From positions 362,108 through 426,107 of the forward strand of contig CAMTYL010000003.1 in the NCBI GenBank assembly GCA_947085985.1: a stretch of DNA of 64,000 bases, given 5' to 3'. Both the position numbers and the translations under genes were made by a program. How positions within the stretch are numbered: the stretch's first letter is position 1; every line of letters begins with the position of its first letter. The notes beneath the pieces were generated by a model. It saw only the letters and a list, made by a program, of their open reading frames with translations. It ran no database searches and was not told where the DNA came from. The stretch comes from an uncultured bacterium (GTDB lineage Bacteria > Patescibacteriota > Minisyncoccia > Phycocordibacterales > Phycocordibacteraceae). Shown here in pieces: positions 20,336 through 56,420 of the stretch.

Positions 20336-21337
20336 TCAATGCGCCTTGCGAAAGTTGTTTTGTATATGCTCGCTCAACATGTGGGCATTCCCGTGCTTCA
20401 AGAGCCCCAGGCATGACTGAATACTCTCTTCCTTTCCCTCTATTTCCATGATACGCCGCAGCATTCGTCGCTTGCTGGTGCTCCGTAGAGTGCGATGGTC
20501 AGGGAAATGCACCCAACCGAGAAAGTCTACCCCTGCCGAAAGTGTTCCGATTGATACTTTCCTTGGATGAAGCTCTAATTTCAGACGGGCATGTAGAAAT
20601 TCCTCAATACGAGGAAGGAGTGATTCGAGCAACATGCGGTCTTCCGAGAAGAAAGCAAAGTCATCCGCATACCGTATGTAGTGCTTAGCTTTTAGTTTAT
20701 GCTTTGCAAATTGGTCGAACTCGTTCATGTACACATTCACTAGAAGTTGTGAGGTAAGGTTGCCGAGTGGTAGACCCTTTCCCTTTTCACTACTTGAAAA
20801 GCTTTCGATAACTCTCCCAATGAGCCAGAGCGTATCTTCGTCTGACAAATAGGAACGGAGTATATCCATAAGCACATCTTGGTCTATTGAAGCAAAGAAC
20901 TTTCGAATATCACACTTCAGCACCCAACAGGTACGGGTACCGTTCTTTGATACCTTATAGCCAAATGCTTTGAATCTCTTCATTGCTCTGTGCGTTCCCT
21001 TTTTCTTTCGACATGAAAACGAGTCTGCAATAAAGGTACGGTCAAAGAGCGGATACAGCTTACGGTAAATAGCATGATGCAATAGGCGGTCTCGTACCAG
21101 TGCTTTATGTATATCTCGCGGTTTTGGGTCTGATATCTTAAAGGCCGTATATCCTCCGTGGGTATAGGTTTTCTCTTTTAAATCTTCTTGCAACTTGAAA
21201 ACATGGTGCATGAGAAAGCGTGAGAACTCACGAACATCCATTTTTCTTCGCTTCCCTTTTAGGAATTCGTGCCACGCTTCGAGCAGATTCTCGATTGAGA
21301 TGATATCTTCATATTTATGAACGAAGCGATTTCGCAT
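20336..21337 (-). CDS. Diversity-generating retroelement reverse transcriptase (DGR RT), copy 1
   Basis: 333 aa; YADD catalytic motif; DGR-specific LPLGNLTSQLLVNVYMNEFD (I/LGxxxSQ) motif; strong similarity to the Bordetella phage bRT family layout. Confidence 0.85.
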   Translation of the reverse strand: MRNRFVHKYEDIISIENLLEAWHEFLKGKRRKMDVREFSRFLMHHVFKLQEDLKEKTYTHGGYTAFKISDPKPRDIHKALVRDRLLHHAIYRKLYPLFDRTFIADSFSCRKKKGTHRAMKRFKAFGYKVSKNGTRTCWVLKCDIRKFFASIDQDVLMDILRSYLSDEDTLWLIGRVIESFSSSEKGKGLPLGNLTSQLLVNVYMNEFDQFAKHKLKAKHYIRYADDFAFFSEDRMLLESLLPRIEEFLHARLKLELHPRKVSIGTLSAGVDFLGWVHFPDHRTLRSTSKRRMLRRIMEIEGKEESIQSCLGLLKHGNAHMLSEHIQNNFRKAH

Positions 21338-21371
21338 ACGGCATTTAACGCCCCCCCCCCCACGATCTTTC

Positions 21372-21734
21372 GTGGCCGTCGTAGAGCGTGCAAAAGACCT
21401 CTATCGCGTGTGGCTGCCTGTGCGACGCAGTATGGCGCGGGACGAACGCTTCGGTATTGGCGCAAGAATAGACACCTTACTTCTCGATATTCTTGAGACT
21501 CTGCGAAAGGCAAGTTTTGTAGATACGACAAGCAAACCCGCTCTACTAGGTACAGCGATAGGTATAGCGGACTCATTGCGGTTCTTCTTGCAGATAGCAT
21601 GGGAAAACAAACTGATTGCTAATAAACAATACGAGGAACTCGCGGGTGCTGTCGAGGAGATAGGACGCATGACTGGAGGTTGGAGAAAGGGTGTTCTTAG
21701 TAAAACCCCGCTCAAGCAGAGCGGGGAAAGATAG
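21372..21734 (+). CDS. avd: Accessory variability determinant (Avd) / four-helix-bundle protein, encoded antisense to the DGR RT/TR strand
   Basis: 120 aa, pattern ...GIGARIDTLLLDILETL...LRFFLQIAWENKLIANKQYEELAGAVEEIGRMTGGW typical of Avd/23S-IVS four-helix-bundle family. Confidence 0.7.
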   Translation: MAVVERAKDLYRVWLPVRRSMARDERFGIGARIDTLLLDILETLRKASFVDTTSKPALLGTAIGIADSLRFFLQIAWENKLIANKQYEELAGAVEEIGRMTGGWRKGVLSKTPLKQSGER

Positions 21735-21739
21735 GAGTA

Positions 21740-21843
21740 GCGAGAAACGACGTGGTTGCCGTCGTTCCACTCGTTCGGGTTCGTAACCGGATTGGCTTCG
21801 ACATTCCAGCCGTCGTCGTTCCAGTTGGCGTTCACCGCCCAGA
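21740..21843 (-). repeat. DGR template repeat TR1 (A-rich on minus strand)
   Basis: 104-bp near-identical to 22165-22268; all ~20 mismatches are T (plus) = A (minus) in this copy. Confidence 0.8.
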
Positions 21844-22161
21844 CGATATGTGCATCACGCCATCCGTACCACTGCCCTTTGAATACTCTTAAGGCTGAAT
21901 CTCATGTGGGACCTCGGAAGTCCACGAGCGCAATGCACCTGTTTCTATTCTTTTTTAGAACATCTGCGGACACGCTTGTGCTTGGAATACCTCACGCAAT
22001 TCTCTTCCGCATATGTCCAAGGAGTTGCGTGCGAGCCGTAGCCAACACACCATAACTTCCTTGTTGTCATTGTATCAAAGCAAAGGACCCTCATCCCCAG
22101 TGCCGACAAAGCGACAAAGGTTCAGAGGGTCCAAGGGTCCGAAGACCAAAGTGACTGAGAA

Positions 22162-22779
22162 TCAGCGAGAAACGACGCGGCGGCCGTCGCGCCACTCGAG
22201 CGGGTACGCAACCGGAGAGGCCTCGACACGCCAGCCGTCGACGCCCCAGTCGGCGCCCACCGCCCAGAGGACTCCCTTCGCGTCAGCGACGTAGAAGATG
22301 AACCACTTGGACTTGTCGGCGGTCTTCAGGAACTCGAAGGTGTGCGCCAGGGCGACACGGGCCTTCTCGACCTTGTTCAGATCCTTGTCGCCGAGGGCGG
22401 CGAGGATCGGACCGTCGACAGACGACTTCCGCAGCTTGCGCTGCTTGGCCGTCATGGGCTTCACGTCTTCTTCGACGACATCGAGGAAATTCCCCTTGAA
22501 GTTGTCGCCGAGGTACGAGATCGGGAGTTCCCCGTTCCGATTGACCATGAACTTGTCGCGGGCGACGAAACGCTCGACGGCGGAGAGCTTCACGGGCTCG
22601 CCGACCTGTTCGAGCAAATCCGCGAGGACTTTCGGGGCGGCGGCGTGCTTGGCCTGACCCGCGTTGCCGGGTTCGGTAACAACGAGTTCGCCGCTCAACA
22701 CGCGAGCGATGGCGGATTCGCCACCAATTTTGTTGATGAGCGCCTCGACTTGGCCGAGGTTCACATTGCCGTACTTCAT
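22162..22779 (-). CDS. DGR target (variable) protein 1, 205 aa, C-terminal VR-encoded ligand-binding region
   Basis: C-terminus VLWAVGADWGVDGWRVEASPVAYPLEWRDGRRVVSR matches TR-encoded ...VWAVNANWNDDGWNVEANPVTNPNEWNDGNHVVSR. Confidence 0.75.
   Translation of the reverse strand: MKYGNVNLGQVEALINKIGGESAIARVLSGELVVTEPGNAGQAKHAAAPKVLADLLEQVGEPVKLSAVERFVARDKFMVNRNGELPISYLGDNFKGNFLDVVEEDVKPMTAKQRKLRKSSVDGPILAALGDKDLNKVEKARVALAHTFEFLKTADKSKWFIFYVADAKGVLWAVGADWGVDGWRVEASPVAYPLEWRDGRRVVSR
22165..22268 (-). repeat. DGR variable repeat VR1 at the 3' end of target gene 22162-22779
   Basis: Pairs with TR1; substitutions only at TR adenines; ends at the stop codon. Confidence 0.8.
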
Positions 22780-25705: not shown

Positions 25706-26287
25706 TTAGCGCGTTTCAACGAGTAGCGTAAATCGATACTGACTCTTATCTATAGGTGTCGTAGAGAGTGGCGTGGGCACTACGTCCGTAAGGGTGATTT
25801 GAAGATGCTCAGTGGTGGAGACGACCCCAAGAGAAAGTGGCAGTGTGCTGGTTCCGTTTGGGCCCGTGACCGTGGCAGAAAGCTCTACCGTACCTGCCTG
25901 TATGCACTGCACATCACTTGGGCAACGACTGTCCACAGTCACGCGATCGATCACAATGCTAGAGTCAGGCATTGCTCCCGGCTCGCCCAAGGAAAGCATG
26001 AGTGTGGTGGTTGCCGTTTGAGGAAGCACTACGGGCACCTCTACCTCGGGAGCCAGTGCAGTGCGAGGATTATTAAGCACGTACCCTGCCATTCCACTTA
26101 TAAGTACCGCAACGCCGCCAAGGAGCCAAAGGTACATAAAGGTGTGGTGAGGCTTCTTGTCGTGGTGGTGCAACATTACCCGTATTCTAGCACCCGTGCT
26201 CCACGCAGGGGGCATCAAGTGAGTATTTGACATATTTATTAAAATGGTATAGAATATACATATGAACGCACTCTTTACGAGCGCCAA
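25706..26287 (-). CDS. Hypothetical membrane-anchored/secreted protein
   Basis: ORF with TM segment; no known domain. Confidence 0.35.
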   Translation of the reverse strand: MALVKSAFICIFYTILINMSNTHLMPPAWSTGARIRVMLHHHDKKPHHTFMYLWLLGGVAVLISGMAGYVLNNPRTALAPEVEVPVVLPQTATTTLMLSLGEPGAMPDSSIVIDRVTVDSRCPSDVQCIQAGTVELSATVTGPNGTSTLPLSLGVVSTTEHLQITLTDVVPTPLSTTPIDKSQYRFTLLVETR

Positions 26288-49249: not shown

Positions 49250-49388
49250 GGGCTGGCCATCTCGAGTTCGAACCGTATAGAACCAAGCCCTGCTTAGTCC
49301 GTTTGGTGAGTTTTCAGAAACCAAAACGACGCGTCTCGTGCACCTAGGAAAGTTACAAAAGTGACACAGGAATGAGGTTTTGGTGTCA
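49250..49388 (-). repeat. Copy A of a ~130-nt conserved 3'-UTR element with terminator hairpin (after RT2 stop)
   Basis: ~85% identical to 56290-56420; imperfect hairpin gggctgg...ccaagccc followed by U-run in minus sense. Confidence 0.6.
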
Positions 49389-49389
49389 C

Positions 49390-50385
49390 TTAAATAGTTA
49401 CACTATCCTGTAACGTTTGGACTCTGGTGGCGAGCTTTCTCGTATTTCCATGAGACATTAGGCCGAAATATGAACTCAGTCGTTCCTTGGACGTATTGTT
49501 CCTGAGCTTCGTAAACATCCTCCTTTTACTTACAGTCCTCAATACCCTGTGATCTGAGAAATGCACCCAGCCAAGAAAGTCCACGCCCGACGCAAAGGAC
49601 TTTATATATACCTTGTCCGGGTGCATGGTTAGTCCAAGATTGGTTTCTAGGAATTCATTCAACTGAGGGATGAGTGATTCAAGGTATCCTCGGTCTTCAC
49701 TGAGGAATACGAAATCATCAGCGTAGCGTATGTAGTACTTTGCCCGGAGACGGTGTTTAACGAACTGGTCGAATTCATTCATATACACGTTCGCGAAGAG
49801 TTGTGATGTGAGATTGCCAAGAGGTAGTCCCGTTTTAGGTGTAACCTCGAAGCTGGAGATTATCTCTCGTAAAAGATTCAGAATGTCTGGATCAGGAATA
49901 TGGGATTCAAGAATGGTCATCAGTTTGTTGTGCTTCATGGAGGCAAAGAACTTCCTGATATCGCACTTCAATACCCAGACCGTTCGAGTGTTATTGCGTC
50001 CTACCTTCTGAGAGAAAGCTTTGAATCTATCGAGAGCTTTATGTATGCCCTTTCCGTCACGACAGGAGTACGAGTCATGGATAAAGGTAGTATCAAAGAA
50101 TGGATATAGTTGGCGATATAGAGCGTGGTGCAGGAGCCGATCACGCACATTAGCCTTATGAATAATGCGAGGCTTGGGGTCAGAGATATTGAAACTTATA
50201 TATCCGCCATTGCGATACGACCTATTCTTTAAATCAGCGTGTAGGTCGAGGACGTGTCCCATGAGATTCGTTTCAAACTCCCGCACATCCTTTCGGGCGC
50301 GTTTTCCGTTCAAAAACTCTCGCCATGCGTCGAGTAGATTCTCCGTCGAGATGATATCTTGATATCTATGTCCGTACGCTCTCAT
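49390..50385 (-). CDS. DGR reverse transcriptase, copy 2 (paralog, ~60% aa identity to copy 1)
   Basis: YADD, LPLGNLTSQLFANVYMNEFD motifs. Confidence 0.85.
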   Translation of the reverse strand: MRAYGHRYQDIISTENLLDAWREFLNGKRARKDVREFETNLMGHVLDLHADLKNRSYRNGGYISFNISDPKPRIIHKANVRDRLLHHALYRQLYPFFDTTFIHDSYSCRDGKGIHKALDRFKAFSQKVGRNNTRTVWVLKCDIRKFFASMKHNKLMTILESHIPDPDILNLLREIISSFEVTPKTGLPLGNLTSQLFANVYMNEFDQFVKHRLRAKYYIRYADDFVFLSEDRGYLESLIPQLNEFLETNLGLTMHPDKVYIKSFASGVDFLGWVHFSDHRVLRTVSKRRMFTKLRNNTSKERLSSYFGLMSHGNTRKLATRVQTLQDSVTI

Positions 50386-50427
50386 ACCTCCAAGGCTACC
50401 CCCCCCCCGACACTTCCAGTGCTAGTG

Positions 50428-50760
50428 CAGGTCAAAAGTGTGTATATCCTTTGGAACTCTTACGCCGCAAAAATTCCTAAGACCGCTAAGTACTCTCTTG
50501 GTCTCAAGATAGATAATCTGTTTATAGATACGATTGAAGCAATTTCAATTGCCGCATTCCTACAGCGTGCCGAGAAACTTCCCTATCTCAAGAGAGCAAT
50601 TGCGCGAGTCGATACCCTGAAAGTCTTTCTACAGCTTGTATGGGAAATGAAGCTACTAGATACTAAGCAGTATGCGGAGATTTCAGAGAAGCTCTCGGAA
50701 GTAGGAAAAATGCTTGGAGGCTGGTACGGACAGGTAGTAAAGCAAAACTCCCCTGCATAG
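50428..50760 (+). CDS. avd: Avd-like four-helix-bundle protein, copy 2 (antisense to RT/TR strand); start uncertain
   Basis: ...KYSLGLKIDNLFIDTIEAI...LKVFLQLVWEMKLLDTKQYAEISEKLSEVGKMLGGW. Confidence 0.65.
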   Translation, partial: QVKSVYILWNSYAAKIPKTAKYSLGLKIDNLFIDTIEAISIAAFLQRAEKLPYLKRAIARVDTLKVFLQLVWEMKLLDTKQYAEISEKLSEVGKMLGGWYGQVVKQNSPA

Positions 50761-50781
50761 GCAGGAGAGAAATGAAGTAAG

Positions 50782-50907
50782 TTGCGAAGACGGAACACGA
50801 TGCGATTGTCGAGGTTCCACTGATTGTCGGGATTCGTCCAGTTCGTATTGAGCCACTGCTTGCCGTCCGAGTTCCGCTTGACGTTGAAGACGTTCGGGTT
50901 GCCGTCG
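50782..50907 (-). repeat. DGR template repeat TR2
   Basis: ~126 bp matching 51274-51398; ~24 mismatches, all TR-adenine (T on plus strand). Confidence 0.8.
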
Positions 50908-51257
50908 GAATCGGTTTGAGCGCCACACCATCTGTACCACCACCCCTTGAAAGTTCTTGGGGTTGAATCTTATGTGTGATCGTAATCACCAGTGTGACGC
51001 ACCAAGTATCTTCATTTTTGAAGTTTCTGCATACACCACGCTAGTTCAAATCGTAGTCGGAACTATTCTGGGTTGTATGGATACTGGGTTCGGTAGCAGA
51101 CGAGCCTATGGCTCCCGCGTATTCACCTACTGCCGTTTTTAAATATACCGTATGTAAATGTAGAAAGTCCCCGGGCGCATCACTGCGGCCGGGGACCCTT
51201 GATCGGAAGGACAAAGTATCAGAGGGACAAAGAGCCGAAGCTCTAGTCCCAAGGATC

Positions 51258-51956
51258 TTAGTCCTGAGTGACCTTGCGAAGACGGAACACGATGCGATTG
51301 CCGAGGCTCCACTGATTGCCGGGATGCGTCCAGTCCGCAATGAGCCACCGCTCGCCGCCCGAGCCCCGCCCGACGCGGAAGACGCTCGGGCGGCCGCCGG
51401 AAGCGGTAATCCGTTCCATCGCGATCCAGAGGACTTCGCCGTTGGGCTGATCCTTGTACTGGTCGCGGATGTGCGGACCCGCTTCCGCCGGAAGCAGTTC
51501 GACGACGTGGCCGTCGAGCCGTTCGGCGTTCTGCGCGCTCCACTCGGCAAGCCGGGTGGGATCGAGCAGTTCGGTCGTGGTCGGCATGCGCTCATAGCCG
51601 AAGTCGGCAGGGGTGAGGATGATCGTATCGATTTCCTCCTCCTTGTCGAGCGTCGTGAAGGCGTGGTTGTTGACCAGGCTCTTGGCGTAGTCGCTGACCG
51701 TGAAGCCAGCTTCGACGCGCTTGATGAGCGCCTTCTTGGCGACGCCGCCGATCAGGAACGTCCGCCACTTGGCGAACGCAGGCGTGACCACCAACAGGGG
51801 CGGTTCGGGCGTCTTCCCTTCGATGACGGCCTGGAGGGCCTTCATCACGTCGTCGAAGTTGGCATAGGAGCCGGACTTCACACGCCGGAACAGGTCGTTT
51901 TGGCGGACGGCGAGCTGACCCAGCTGACCGTCGGTGACAAGAGTCTTGGTATTCAT
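51258..51956 (-). CDS. DGR target (variable) protein 2 (233 aa from ATG 51956), paralog of target 1
   Basis: Shared FTVSDYAKSL../ISYLGDNFKGNF.. core and VR-encoded C-terminus ...ERWLIADWTHPGNQWSLGNRIVF. Confidence 0.7.
   Translation of the reverse strand: MNTKTLVTDGQLGQLAVRQNDLFRRVKSGSYANFDDVMKALQAVIEGKTPEPPLLVVTPAFAKWRTFLIGGVAKKALIKRVEAGFTVSDYAKSLVNNHAFTTLDKEEEIDTIILTPADFGYERMPTTTELLDPTRLAEWSAQNAERLDGHVVELLPAEAGPHIRDQYKDQPNGEVLWIAMERITASGGRPSVFRVGRGSGGERWLIADWTHPGNQWSLGNRIVFRLRKVTQD
51274..51398 (-). repeat. DGR variable repeat VR2 at the 3' end of target gene 51258-51956
   Basis: Pairs with TR2; A-specific substitution pattern. Confidence 0.8.
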
Positions 51957-52357
51957 GATATACCTCGTCGTGACAGTACTTTGCCGTTCAAGCTCACCAG
52001 TGTTCGGGTTCGCCACAGCGGAGAATGGCCTAGATAAGCCGCTCTTCGCTGTGGCGAATTCGCAAGGTTTTCAAGGAACAAGTCCGTACCACAGTATCAC
52101 AATATACGGGTAAAGTCAAGTCATTTTGACCGTTCCCGCTCAGAAGAATATCCTTATCAAATATGAGCCAAATAGTTATCGGGGTCGTCATTGCCGTTAT
52201 ATCGGCCATCATCATTTCCCTATTCCGAATTGGTGGAAATCAGAACGTAACGGTACATCACGTACAAAGCACTCATCGTGCTGGGACTCTTTGGAAACTA
52301 ATGATTGTTCTAGGCTGGGGCAGTGAAGTTCCCTCGCGAAGGAGCGGAGCAGCTTAT

Positions 52358-56289: not shown

Positions 56290-56420
56290 AAAACTAAGCT
56301 GCTGGCCGTCTCGAGTTAGAACCGTGGCCGGTCAAGCCCTGCTTGGTCCGTTTGATGAGTTTTCAAAATCCAAAACGACCCGTCTCGAGCGCTTTCAAAG
56401 TGACAAAAGTGACACTCCCC
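56290..56420 (-). repeat. Copy B of the ~130-nt conserved 3'-UTR element (after stop of 56420-56923 gene)
   Basis: ~85% identical to 49250-49388. Confidence 0.6.

Follow-up and report, generated by a model that had tools for sequence, protein, structure and literature searches.

Two diversity-generating retroelement (DGR) cassettes lie in a 64,000-base stretch of an uncultured Patescibacteriota genome (contig CAMTYL010000003.1, positions 362,108 to 426,107; hereafter the window). Each carries a long cytosine tract between the gene for its reverse transcriptase (RT) and the divergent gene for its accessory protein, avd. Both cassettes are complete DGRs, combining an RT of the DGR clade (RVT_1 matches of 1e-20 and 9e-25, with the motif LGNLTSQ in both), an Avd protein that matches the bAvd family (PF22296, 46.5 bits in each case against a cut-off of 40 bits) and an adenine-specific pair of template repeat (TR) and variable repeat (VR). 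The TR and VR are 108 nt long in cassette 1 and 134 nt in cassette 2 and are 81–84% identical, and in both cassettes the mismatches fall on plus-strand T, which is A in the TR sense. Along the RT strand, the order is target gene with its VR, TR, antisense avd, tract and RT, and each VR forms the 3′ end of a minus-strand target open reading frame (ORF). Feature coordinates are collected in Table 1.

Direct reading of the window places the tracts, C11 and C10, at 21351-21361 and 50399-50408 of the plus strand; read in the RT sense, the cassette 1 tract is G11. They are the only runs of C or G longer than 5 in the window, for which independent bases would predict about 0.11 runs of at least 10. 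Each occupies the gap of 33-34 nt between the minus-strand RT gene and the plus-strand bAvd gene, exactly 13 nt upstream of the minus-strand ATG of RT (21337 and 50385) and 10 nt upstream of the first in-frame avd GTG (21372 and 50419). RT1 shares 61% identity with RT2 and Avd1 only 33% with Avd2, and the tract is the sole element that the intergenic DNA of the two cassettes shares. Both runs are real and strongly non-random. The preliminary description of this DNA had given the same positions and lengths and had called tracts of this size rare, which our reading bears out within the window. It had also placed them about 14-20 nt from the RT start and about 10-20 nt upstream of the avd start; these distances are roughly correct, but the tract probably lies within the avd reading frame rather than ahead of the avd start.

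We surveyed related loci for what occupies this site. Relatives numbered 481 among Patescibacteria genome contigs and 503 among metagenome contigs, and scans with the RT alignment yielded 80 loci from species-representative genomes (all of them metagenome-assembled genomes of Patescibacteria, otherwise called the candidate phyla radiation, CPR), 80 from metagenomes and 30 from viral contigs. About 148 related loci were evaluable, and 125 unique tract-bearing loci were left once duplicates had been removed. The metagenome scan found no relative closer than 76%, and an exact protein look-up for further strains returned one contig per cassette only (L081 and L082; survey loci are cited by L numbers). 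In all loci with enough sequence, avd is divergent from RT and directly upstream of it. A simple repeat fills the avd/RT site in 138 of the roughly 148 evaluable loci: in the avd sense, poly-C of 6-18 nt (mode 9-11) in 124, (CA)n in 8, (GA/AG)n in 4, (CT)9 in 1 and (GCCA)10 in 1, with no repeat at the site in 8. The few additional tracts are interrupted, and 2-3 such cases were seen (L079, L152 and L046). Repeat units are 1, 2 or 4 nt only, multiples of 3 being absent among the surveyed loci, and the property common to all site sequences, independent of motif, is repetitiveness. The flanking DNA, about 0.5 Mb in all, contains almost no other G or C run of at least 7. The tract is missing from relatives whose RT identity falls below about 55%, and in these the avd ATG lies 4-5 codons ahead of an I-P-I-L motif.

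The surveyed loci also indicate to which gene the tract belongs. In 89 of 113 loci it ends 1-3 codons before the LPV of the Avd N-terminus, where a stretch of residues, x-[ILV]-L-P-[VI]-[LIV]-[EQ]-[KR], is kept through synonymous changes; the Pfam bAvd profile has its first position there as well. How far the tract lies from the RT start varies, with 0-35 nt tabulated and more than 50 nt in L029 and L064. The tract is anchored to avd, not to RT. The suggestion, made earlier from the two window copies, that the tract is under selection gains support from its retention at one position in about 138 of the 148 related loci, with di- and tetranucleotide repeats substituting in some lineages.

Between near-identical loci, the tract is where sequences differ. 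The window and L081 (run ERR3478701, identical RT1 protein) agree over 3,525 nt except for C11 in the window and C12 in L081. A single tract G is the only difference between L040 and L118/L141 over 3,565 nt, 3 nt next to the tract the only difference between L046 and L123 over 3,972 nt, and 2 nt at the tract, together with one substitution at RT codon 2, all that separates L039 from L119 over 2,519 nt. Close relatives likewise carry (CA)9 or (CA)8, (CA)14 or (CA)5, (AG)11 or (AG)9, and C9, C10 or C11. The dinucleotide differences are free of homopolymer-count error. On these comparisons the tract is the fastest-changing site and appears hypermutable, as the preliminary description had supposed when it pointed to slipped-strand mispairing; its lengths are not uniform across related genomes. 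The locus thus pairs a tract of at least about 8 G/C whose unit is not divisible by 3 with a repeat number that is polymorphic between near-identical genomes, both hallmarks of simple sequence repeat (SSR) contingency loci. Some contigs are irregular at this site. L065 (1-49) and L036 (1-25) terminate at or beside the tract with aberrantly long homopolymers (C49), and L102 (C18) differs from the 99% identical L016 (C14) in that its tract is fused straight to 'GAYKLW', with the loss of about 10 N-terminal Avd codons; the cause is a deletion at the tract or else misassembly.

Whether such length changes matter to avd depends on where the gene starts. Of the 125 unique loci, 42 have no ATG, GTG or TTG in the first 8 codons past the tract, including 11 of the 14 non-mononucleotide loci, and in L020 the entire avd ORF is without any of the three. 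The genome is poor in Shine-Dalgarno sequences. Among the 39 ATG genes in the window, 17 have a TAnnnT element (TAGACT, TATACT or TAGAAT) that ends 6-9 nt before the ATG (p=9e-14 against a background of 1% per position), as seen at the ATGs at 26262, 45236(-), 43954(-), 37506(-) and 24007(-). This is the geometry expected of leaderless mRNAs, which seem to be the norm in this genome.

The same arrangement is found on the avd strand inside the RT gene, where TGnTAnnnT-N7-ATG runs antisense to the conserved RT N-terminus H-x-Y-[ED]-D-I-I. TAnnnT precedes an avd-strand ATG by 5-9 nt in 103 of the 125 unique loci, with a gap of exactly 7 in 89 and a TGn in 91, and the frame of this ATG is open to the tract in all 103. 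The RT codons involved are strongly biased: His is CAT in 83 loci and CAC in 2 (background 53% CAT, p=2e-20), Asp is GAT in 75 and GAC in 3 (background 55% GAT, p=2e-16), and the first of the two Ile codons is ATC in 81 of 101 (background 38% ATC, p=2e-18). The biased synonymous positions are those that form the TG, the -11 A and the ATG on the avd strand. Because synonymous sites are so strongly biased, the avd-strand motif is no by-product of the RT protein, and because this bias preserves the geometry of a leaderless promoter, avd most likely starts at the ATG at 21317 in cassette 1 and at 50368 in cassette 2. The gene is, on this codon evidence, most likely leaderless, with an ORF that reads through the tract. 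Ahead of the cassette 2 ATG, TGATATCT is tandemly duplicated at 50352-50367, giving two overlapping copies that resemble an extended -10 element. Automatic gene calls start avd at an internal ATG or GTG instead, yielding proteins of 100 aa (L081, 2103-2405) and 106 aa (L082, 2126-2446) that are cut off in the first helix, whereas the upstream ATG gives 130 aa; public avd annotations of the clade are probably mis-started systematically.

Measured from these ATGs, the two window cassettes are in different frames. Cassette 2 (C10) is in frame and encodes an intact Avd of 130 aa (MSVRSHTSKATPPPTLPVLVQVK...), with SKATPPPTLPVLVQVK as the predicted junction peptide of leader, tract and Avd. Cassette 1 (C11) is one base out of frame and would be restored by C10 or C13; the C12 allele of L081 is likewise out of frame. 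Across the 103 loci with a promoter-backed ATG, the frame offset is 0 in 19, +1 in 47 and -1 in 37. Loci that are tract-less (L010/L099, L019, L067 and L159), interrupted (L152) or reduced to C6 only (L144 and L132), all non-slipping configurations, are in frame in 7 of 8 cases, whereas loci that bear a tract are in frame in 19 of 103 (Fisher p=1e-4). Near-identical relatives can fall on either side: L087, with (CA)8, is in frame and its 99% relative L004, with (CA)9, is out, and in the series L131/L160/L127 C9 alone is in frame. This combination of an intact ORF body, a scrambled frame where there is a tract and a fixed ON state where there is none is the pattern expected of a phase-variable gene. 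In the same pair, L004 (201-287) carries 16 substitutions relative to L087 that are not adenine-specific and cluster between VR and TR, the two sequences being otherwise 99.9% identical.

The variable repeats provide a further comparison. The window and L082 (run ERR4904395, identical RT2 protein, same C10) differ at 7 positions in 5,996 nt, and all 7 are in VR2 (51293-51326), each at a TR adenine. To judge from these substitutions, cassette 2 is probably diversifying actively in nature. Between the out-of-frame cassette 1 and L081 there is no VR change. With one comparison per cassette, the contrast between the changed, in-frame cassette 2 and the unchanged cassette 1 agrees with the frame model as an anecdote.

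Table 1. Features of the two DGR cassettes in the 64,000-base window; putative elements are named as such.
Feature	Position	Strand	Remark
Cassette 1 DGR reverse transcriptase	20336..21337	-	RVT_1
Cassette 1 putative avd extended -10, TGa + TATCTT	TGn 21301-21303, TATCTT 21304-21309	+	antisense of RT codons E-D-I-I
Cassette 1 putative leaderless avd ATG	21317..21319	+	complement of RT His codon CAT
Cassette 1 candidate RT -10-like TTAAAT, weaker	21348-21343	-	between tract and RT ATG
Cassette 1 simple-repeat tract, C11	21351..21361	none	direct reading; C12 in otherwise identical 3,525-nt contig
Cassette 1 Avd body (bAvd fold)	21363..21734	+	first in-frame canonical start past tract is GTG 21372
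Cassette 1 hairpin and T-run, terminator-like	21706..21726	-	directly 3′ of TR
Cassette 1 template repeat	21739..21846	-	adenines on minus strand
Cassette 1 variable repeat	22164..22271	-	3′ end of target ORF 22779..22162
Cassette 2 DGR reverse transcriptase	49390..50385	-	RVT_1
Cassette 2 putative avd extended -10, TGa + TATCTT	TGn 50352-50354, TATCTT 50355-50360	+	codon-bias motif
Cassette 2 putative leaderless avd ATG	50368..50370	+	codon-bias motif
Cassette 2 full avd ORF, 130 aa	50368..50760	+	putative leaderless ATG, reads across tract
Cassette 2 candidate RT -10 box, TAGCCT	50393..50398	-	abuts tract, ends 7 nt before RT ATG
Cassette 2 simple-repeat tract, C10	50399..50408	none	in frame, codes TPPP in Avd N-terminal leader
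Cassette 2 hairpin and T-run, terminator-like	50748..50769	-	directly 3′ of TR
Cassette 2 template repeat	50782..50915	-	TR/VR alignment
Cassette 2 variable repeat	51274..51407	-	within target ORF 52016..51258

Two further observations concern the surroundings of the cassettes. The window contains no tRNAs. A 58-nt direct repeat, 90% identical, at 49284-49341 and 56333-56390, 7 kb apart, flanks cassette 2 and its neighbours and could mark a duplication or the boundary of a mobile element.

We propose that the tract is a slipped-strand frame switch on Avd that would gate targeted hypermutation, and give this reading a probability of about 0.55. Translational phase variation at simple sequence repeats has been described before (PMC2715451, PMC4081817, PMC6625227). 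Here, avd would be expressed from a leaderless mRNA whose extended -10 (TGnTAnnnT) and 5′-terminal ATG are written antisense in RT codons ~7-12, as selection on synonymous sites suggests. Read from that ATG, the sequences directly give about 11 leader codons, then the repeat (poly-Pro where it is poly-C) and, within 1-3 codons, the conserved Avd N-terminus (I/L-L-P-V-L). Slipped-strand mispairing, to which the tract-only differences between otherwise identical loci point, would alter the repeat number and so decide whether the ATG and the Avd body share a frame, and Avd production and DGR mutagenesis would then switch stochastically between cells. In the window, cassette 2 (C10) would be ON and cassette 1 (C11) OFF. 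Two modifiers probably act on this switch. Low basal Avd may come from slippage of RNA polymerase or the ribosome on C9-C11 and from a TTG that about half of the loci have just past the tract, and, with a basal TTG start independent of the tract, the switch would perhaps be high/low rather than on/off. The tract also abuts what appears to be the -10 box of a leaderless RT transcript, and RT transcription is perhaps affected as well. The phase-variation idea of the preliminary description is in this sense upheld, with the avd reading frame as its probable target.

Several points weigh against this proposal. In-frame alleles are depleted, at 19 of 103 where 1/3 would be expected (p=6e-4); the expectation of a simple model that Avd must be ON is unmet, and we have accordingly worded the claim as mostly OFF in consensus sequences. 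We infer that the depletion reflects a cost of the ON state; if populations whose VRs are diversifying assemble less well, that could add to it. The promoter and the leaderless start are conclusions from sequence statistics. Homopolymer counts in short-read assemblies are error-prone, and single differences of +/-1 could be partly technical. The window and L081 may come from one sample, and the VR comparison has n=1 per cassette. Finally, the Leu of LPV is TTG in 54 of 88 loci (61%) against 15% of other avd Leu codons (p=4e-23), which suggests a selected, tract-independent secondary start in about half of the loci, and both window cassettes have a GTG past the tract, so that the tract could formally be 5′ untranslated region (UTR) there.

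The alternative that survives best places the effect on RT. The tract would be a spacer upstream of the RT -10 box, its length setting the distance to a -35 element or activator and thereby varying RT transcription. In the RT sense, 28 of 92 loci have a TAnnnT that begins right after the tract and finishes 7 nt short of the RT start (p=1e-32), an arrangement that cassette 2 displays as TAGCCT, 7 nt and ATG. From this geometry RT looks leaderless too, with the tract at about -13 to -23 of its promoter, and the RT and avd mRNAs would overlap head-to-head by 21 nt. A CTGGCA-like hexamer occurs in 17 loci, 16 of them with a spacer of 16-19 nt and one an outlier at 31. Against its being an RT -35, the other promoters of this genome have no -35 consensus, and the candidate is the antisense of the avd L-P codons, in which the Pro wobble position that would supply its conserved T is free. 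The strict adjacency to the -10 box is limited to about a third of the loci, and in some lineages the tract lies more than 45 nt from the RT start yet adjoins the Avd N-terminus. Promoter spacing also leaves unexplained both the CAT, GAT and ATC bias and the in-frame state of tract-less loci. We consider it unlikely as the main function of the tract, while noting that it can coexist with the frame switch. Of the earlier proposal that promoter spacing is altered, then, the contact between tract and RT -10 box stands in about 30% of loci, but no conserved -35 is demonstrable. The companion proposal, that the tract acts in the RT 5′ UTR, is not borne out: if RT is leaderless, there is essentially no 5′ UTR and the tract is outside the RT mRNA, and the avd promoter and ATG appear to lie antisense in the first 12 RT codons. 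A generic sigma-70 scan around the tracts gave nothing useful. We also considered TGGCAAAAT as an extended -10 with a transcription start in the poly-G (reiterative transcription) and rejected it, its wobble position being free and other repeats replacing poly-G.

Somewhat less probable still is a tract that is untranslated or part of an upstream ORF, with Avd starting at a TTG or GTG beyond it and the leader ORF tuning initiation through poly-Pro stalling, dependence on EF-P, or its length. The TTG enrichment at LPV is strong, a canonical start occurs within 8 codons past the tract in 83 of 125 loci, the onset of the bAvd profile falls at just this point, and the depletion of in-frame fusions agrees with such a start. 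Leu TTG codons 2-3 codons past the tract are seen, for example, in L013, L007 and L023, and GTG 21372 and GTG 50419 are the window equivalents; the wobble base of the Pro that follows the Leu is free, and the TTG looks like a selected secondary start codon. The Val GTG is not enriched. The post-tract start is missing in the 42 loci noted above; by repeat type, it is present in 80 of 111 poly-C loci but in 3 of 14 loci with other repeats. No Shine-Dalgarno sequence stands ahead of it because the tract fills that place, poly-Pro stalling is impossible with (CA)n, (GA)n or (GCCA)n, and the tract-less loci depend on the in-frame upstream ATG. Leader-ORF stops are scattered 2-212 nt downstream of the tract, so coupling by termination and reinitiation is not conserved, and we rejected reinitiation from the leader ORF at a downstream TTG on this ground.

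An effect at the RNA level is far less likely. The preliminary description had considered a structured G-run in the DGR RNA, and one may think more widely of a G-quadruplex, a Shine-Dalgarno mimic or a pairing partner in the DGR RNA or RT mRNA. A G-run with a T behind it is similar to GGAGGT, and all such tracts share one orientation, with 124 poly-C tracts in the avd sense and 0 poly-G, a strand bias that is explained by common descent. On the other side, 14 loci replace the G-run by (GT)n, (CT)n, (AG)n or (GGCT)n in the RT sense, Rfam has no match in the window, and the tract would be outside the RT mRNA if that mRNA is leaderless. Long-range pairing of poly-G with a C-run was rejected in the same way: no complementary C-run was found near the tract in the related loci that we checked. 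A perfect hairpin with a U-rich tail on the TR/RT strand, consensus CTCTCC...GGGAGAG TTTTGTTT, lies between TR and tract in 85 of 115 loci, within the antisense 3′ end of avd. It may be the terminator of the TR RNA or a recognition or priming hairpin for RT-Avd, and, if it does end the TR RNA, the tract is outside that RNA. A conserved sequence or structure at the tract on the TR transcript was not found. The structured G-run is therefore disfavoured, its motif being swapped for unrelated repeats, its complementary run being absent and a hairpin separating TR from tract.

That the tract is an assembly or sequencing artefact, or a neutral, slippage-prone leftover, is scarcely credible. Homopolymers do invite errors, and the tract is a breakpoint in some contigs (L065 and L036), but many studies and assemblers together supply more than 120 unique loci in which this very site is filled, it is filled in two paralogues within one genome and also by dinucleotide repeats, neutral tracts decay and yet interrupted ones number 2-3 only, and long G/C runs are otherwise essentially absent from the ~0.5 Mb of flanks.

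The proposed frame switch has close counterparts in other bacteria. SSR contingency loci within 5′ coding sequence include poly-G/C tracts in Campylobacter jejuni and Helicobacter pylori, CT repeats in H. pylori oipA and sabA and tetranucleotides in Haemophilus lic and lgtC, and Neisseria has classical examples too. These share with the DGR loci a mono-, di- or tetranucleotide repeat ahead of the functional domain and a few codons past the start, which is putative in the DGR loci, a repeat number that varies between near-identical strains, a unit never divisible by 3, and an intact ORF body with many alleles out of frame. They differ in what is gated, which here would be a mutator, the DGR accessory protein, rather than a surface or modification gene, and in the host, here a free-living or episymbiotic Patescibacterium rather than a host-adapted pathogen. 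In the DGR loci the mRNA is apparently leaderless, with promoter and ATG antisense in the partner gene, ON alleles are under-represented, and the switch is a proposal from sequence.

Repeats that act as promoter spacers are known from Neisseria meningitidis porA (poly-G) and opc (poly-C), Bordetella pertussis fim (poly-C) and the divergent hifA/hifB genes of Haemophilus influenzae, (TA)n. What these have in common with the DGR loci is that two divergent genes are separated by about 9-14 bp of G:C homopolymer, with a -10 box directly downstream of it. Unlike those systems, the DGR loci have no demonstrable -35, the position of their tract follows avd and not RT, and the divergent genes appear to overlap at their 5′ ends instead of having a common intergenic promoter region.

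Programmed slippage or frameshifting at homopolymers is a third point of comparison, with Thermus dnaX, the transposases of IS elements and CCC-C +1 slippage of tRNA-Pro as examples. Such sites also have a long C-run of Pro codons, the downstream part being usually out of frame. They would show one conserved direction of shift, which is not what we found: +1 and -1 offsets are about equal (+1 : -1 : 0 = 47 : 37 : 19), and non-homopolymer repeats substitute. Both offsets being common and the repeats exchangeable, no fixed programmed shift is indicated, and slippage of RNA polymerase or tRNA-Pro on C9-C11 may add leakiness.

Compared with the canonical DGR of Bordetella phage BPP-1, ordered mtd-avd-TR-brt, the cassettes described here have avd divergent, on the opposite strand, between TR and RT and, it appears, in head-to-head overlap with RT. 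They also carry the simple repeat at the avd 5′ end and a U-tailed hairpin after TR. DGRs of CPR and DPANN genomes were reportedly surveyed by Paul et al. in 2017 and Roux et al. in 2021. Our searches for repeat-based control of DGRs (homopolymer, slipped-strand, phase variation) returned no report in the searchable literature, the main survey of CPR DGRs lying outside that coverage. Three aspects appear to be new: that the function thought to be gated would be a DGR accessory factor, that the tract is conserved over a large Patescibacteria clade, and that one gene would have its promoter and ATG encoded at synonymous positions of its partner.

To our knowledge, DGR regulation is largely unknown, and CPR bacteria have the densest DGR repertoires known. 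Adenine mutagenesis that goes unchecked in a surface or binding protein should come at a cost. If the proposal is true, a repeat switch on Avd would explain how DGR activity is confined to subpopulations, and the frequency of in-frame tract alleles should track VR diversity in existing metagenomes. The finding also has a practical side, in that gene callers mis-start or truncate avd and assemblies may break at the tract or miscount it. More tentatively, with doubt slightly outweighing confidence, we suggest a clade-wide, heritable, reversible and stochastic DGR switch, in which one repeat common to two head-to-head overlapping leaderless genes sets the avd frame and possibly the RT promoter. 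A minority of cells would then diversify, as a form of bet-hedging on hypermutation, and ON would be selected against in most populations. An RT N-terminal coding sequence that doubles as the promoter and start of the opposite gene would be a compact overlap typical of minimal genomes.

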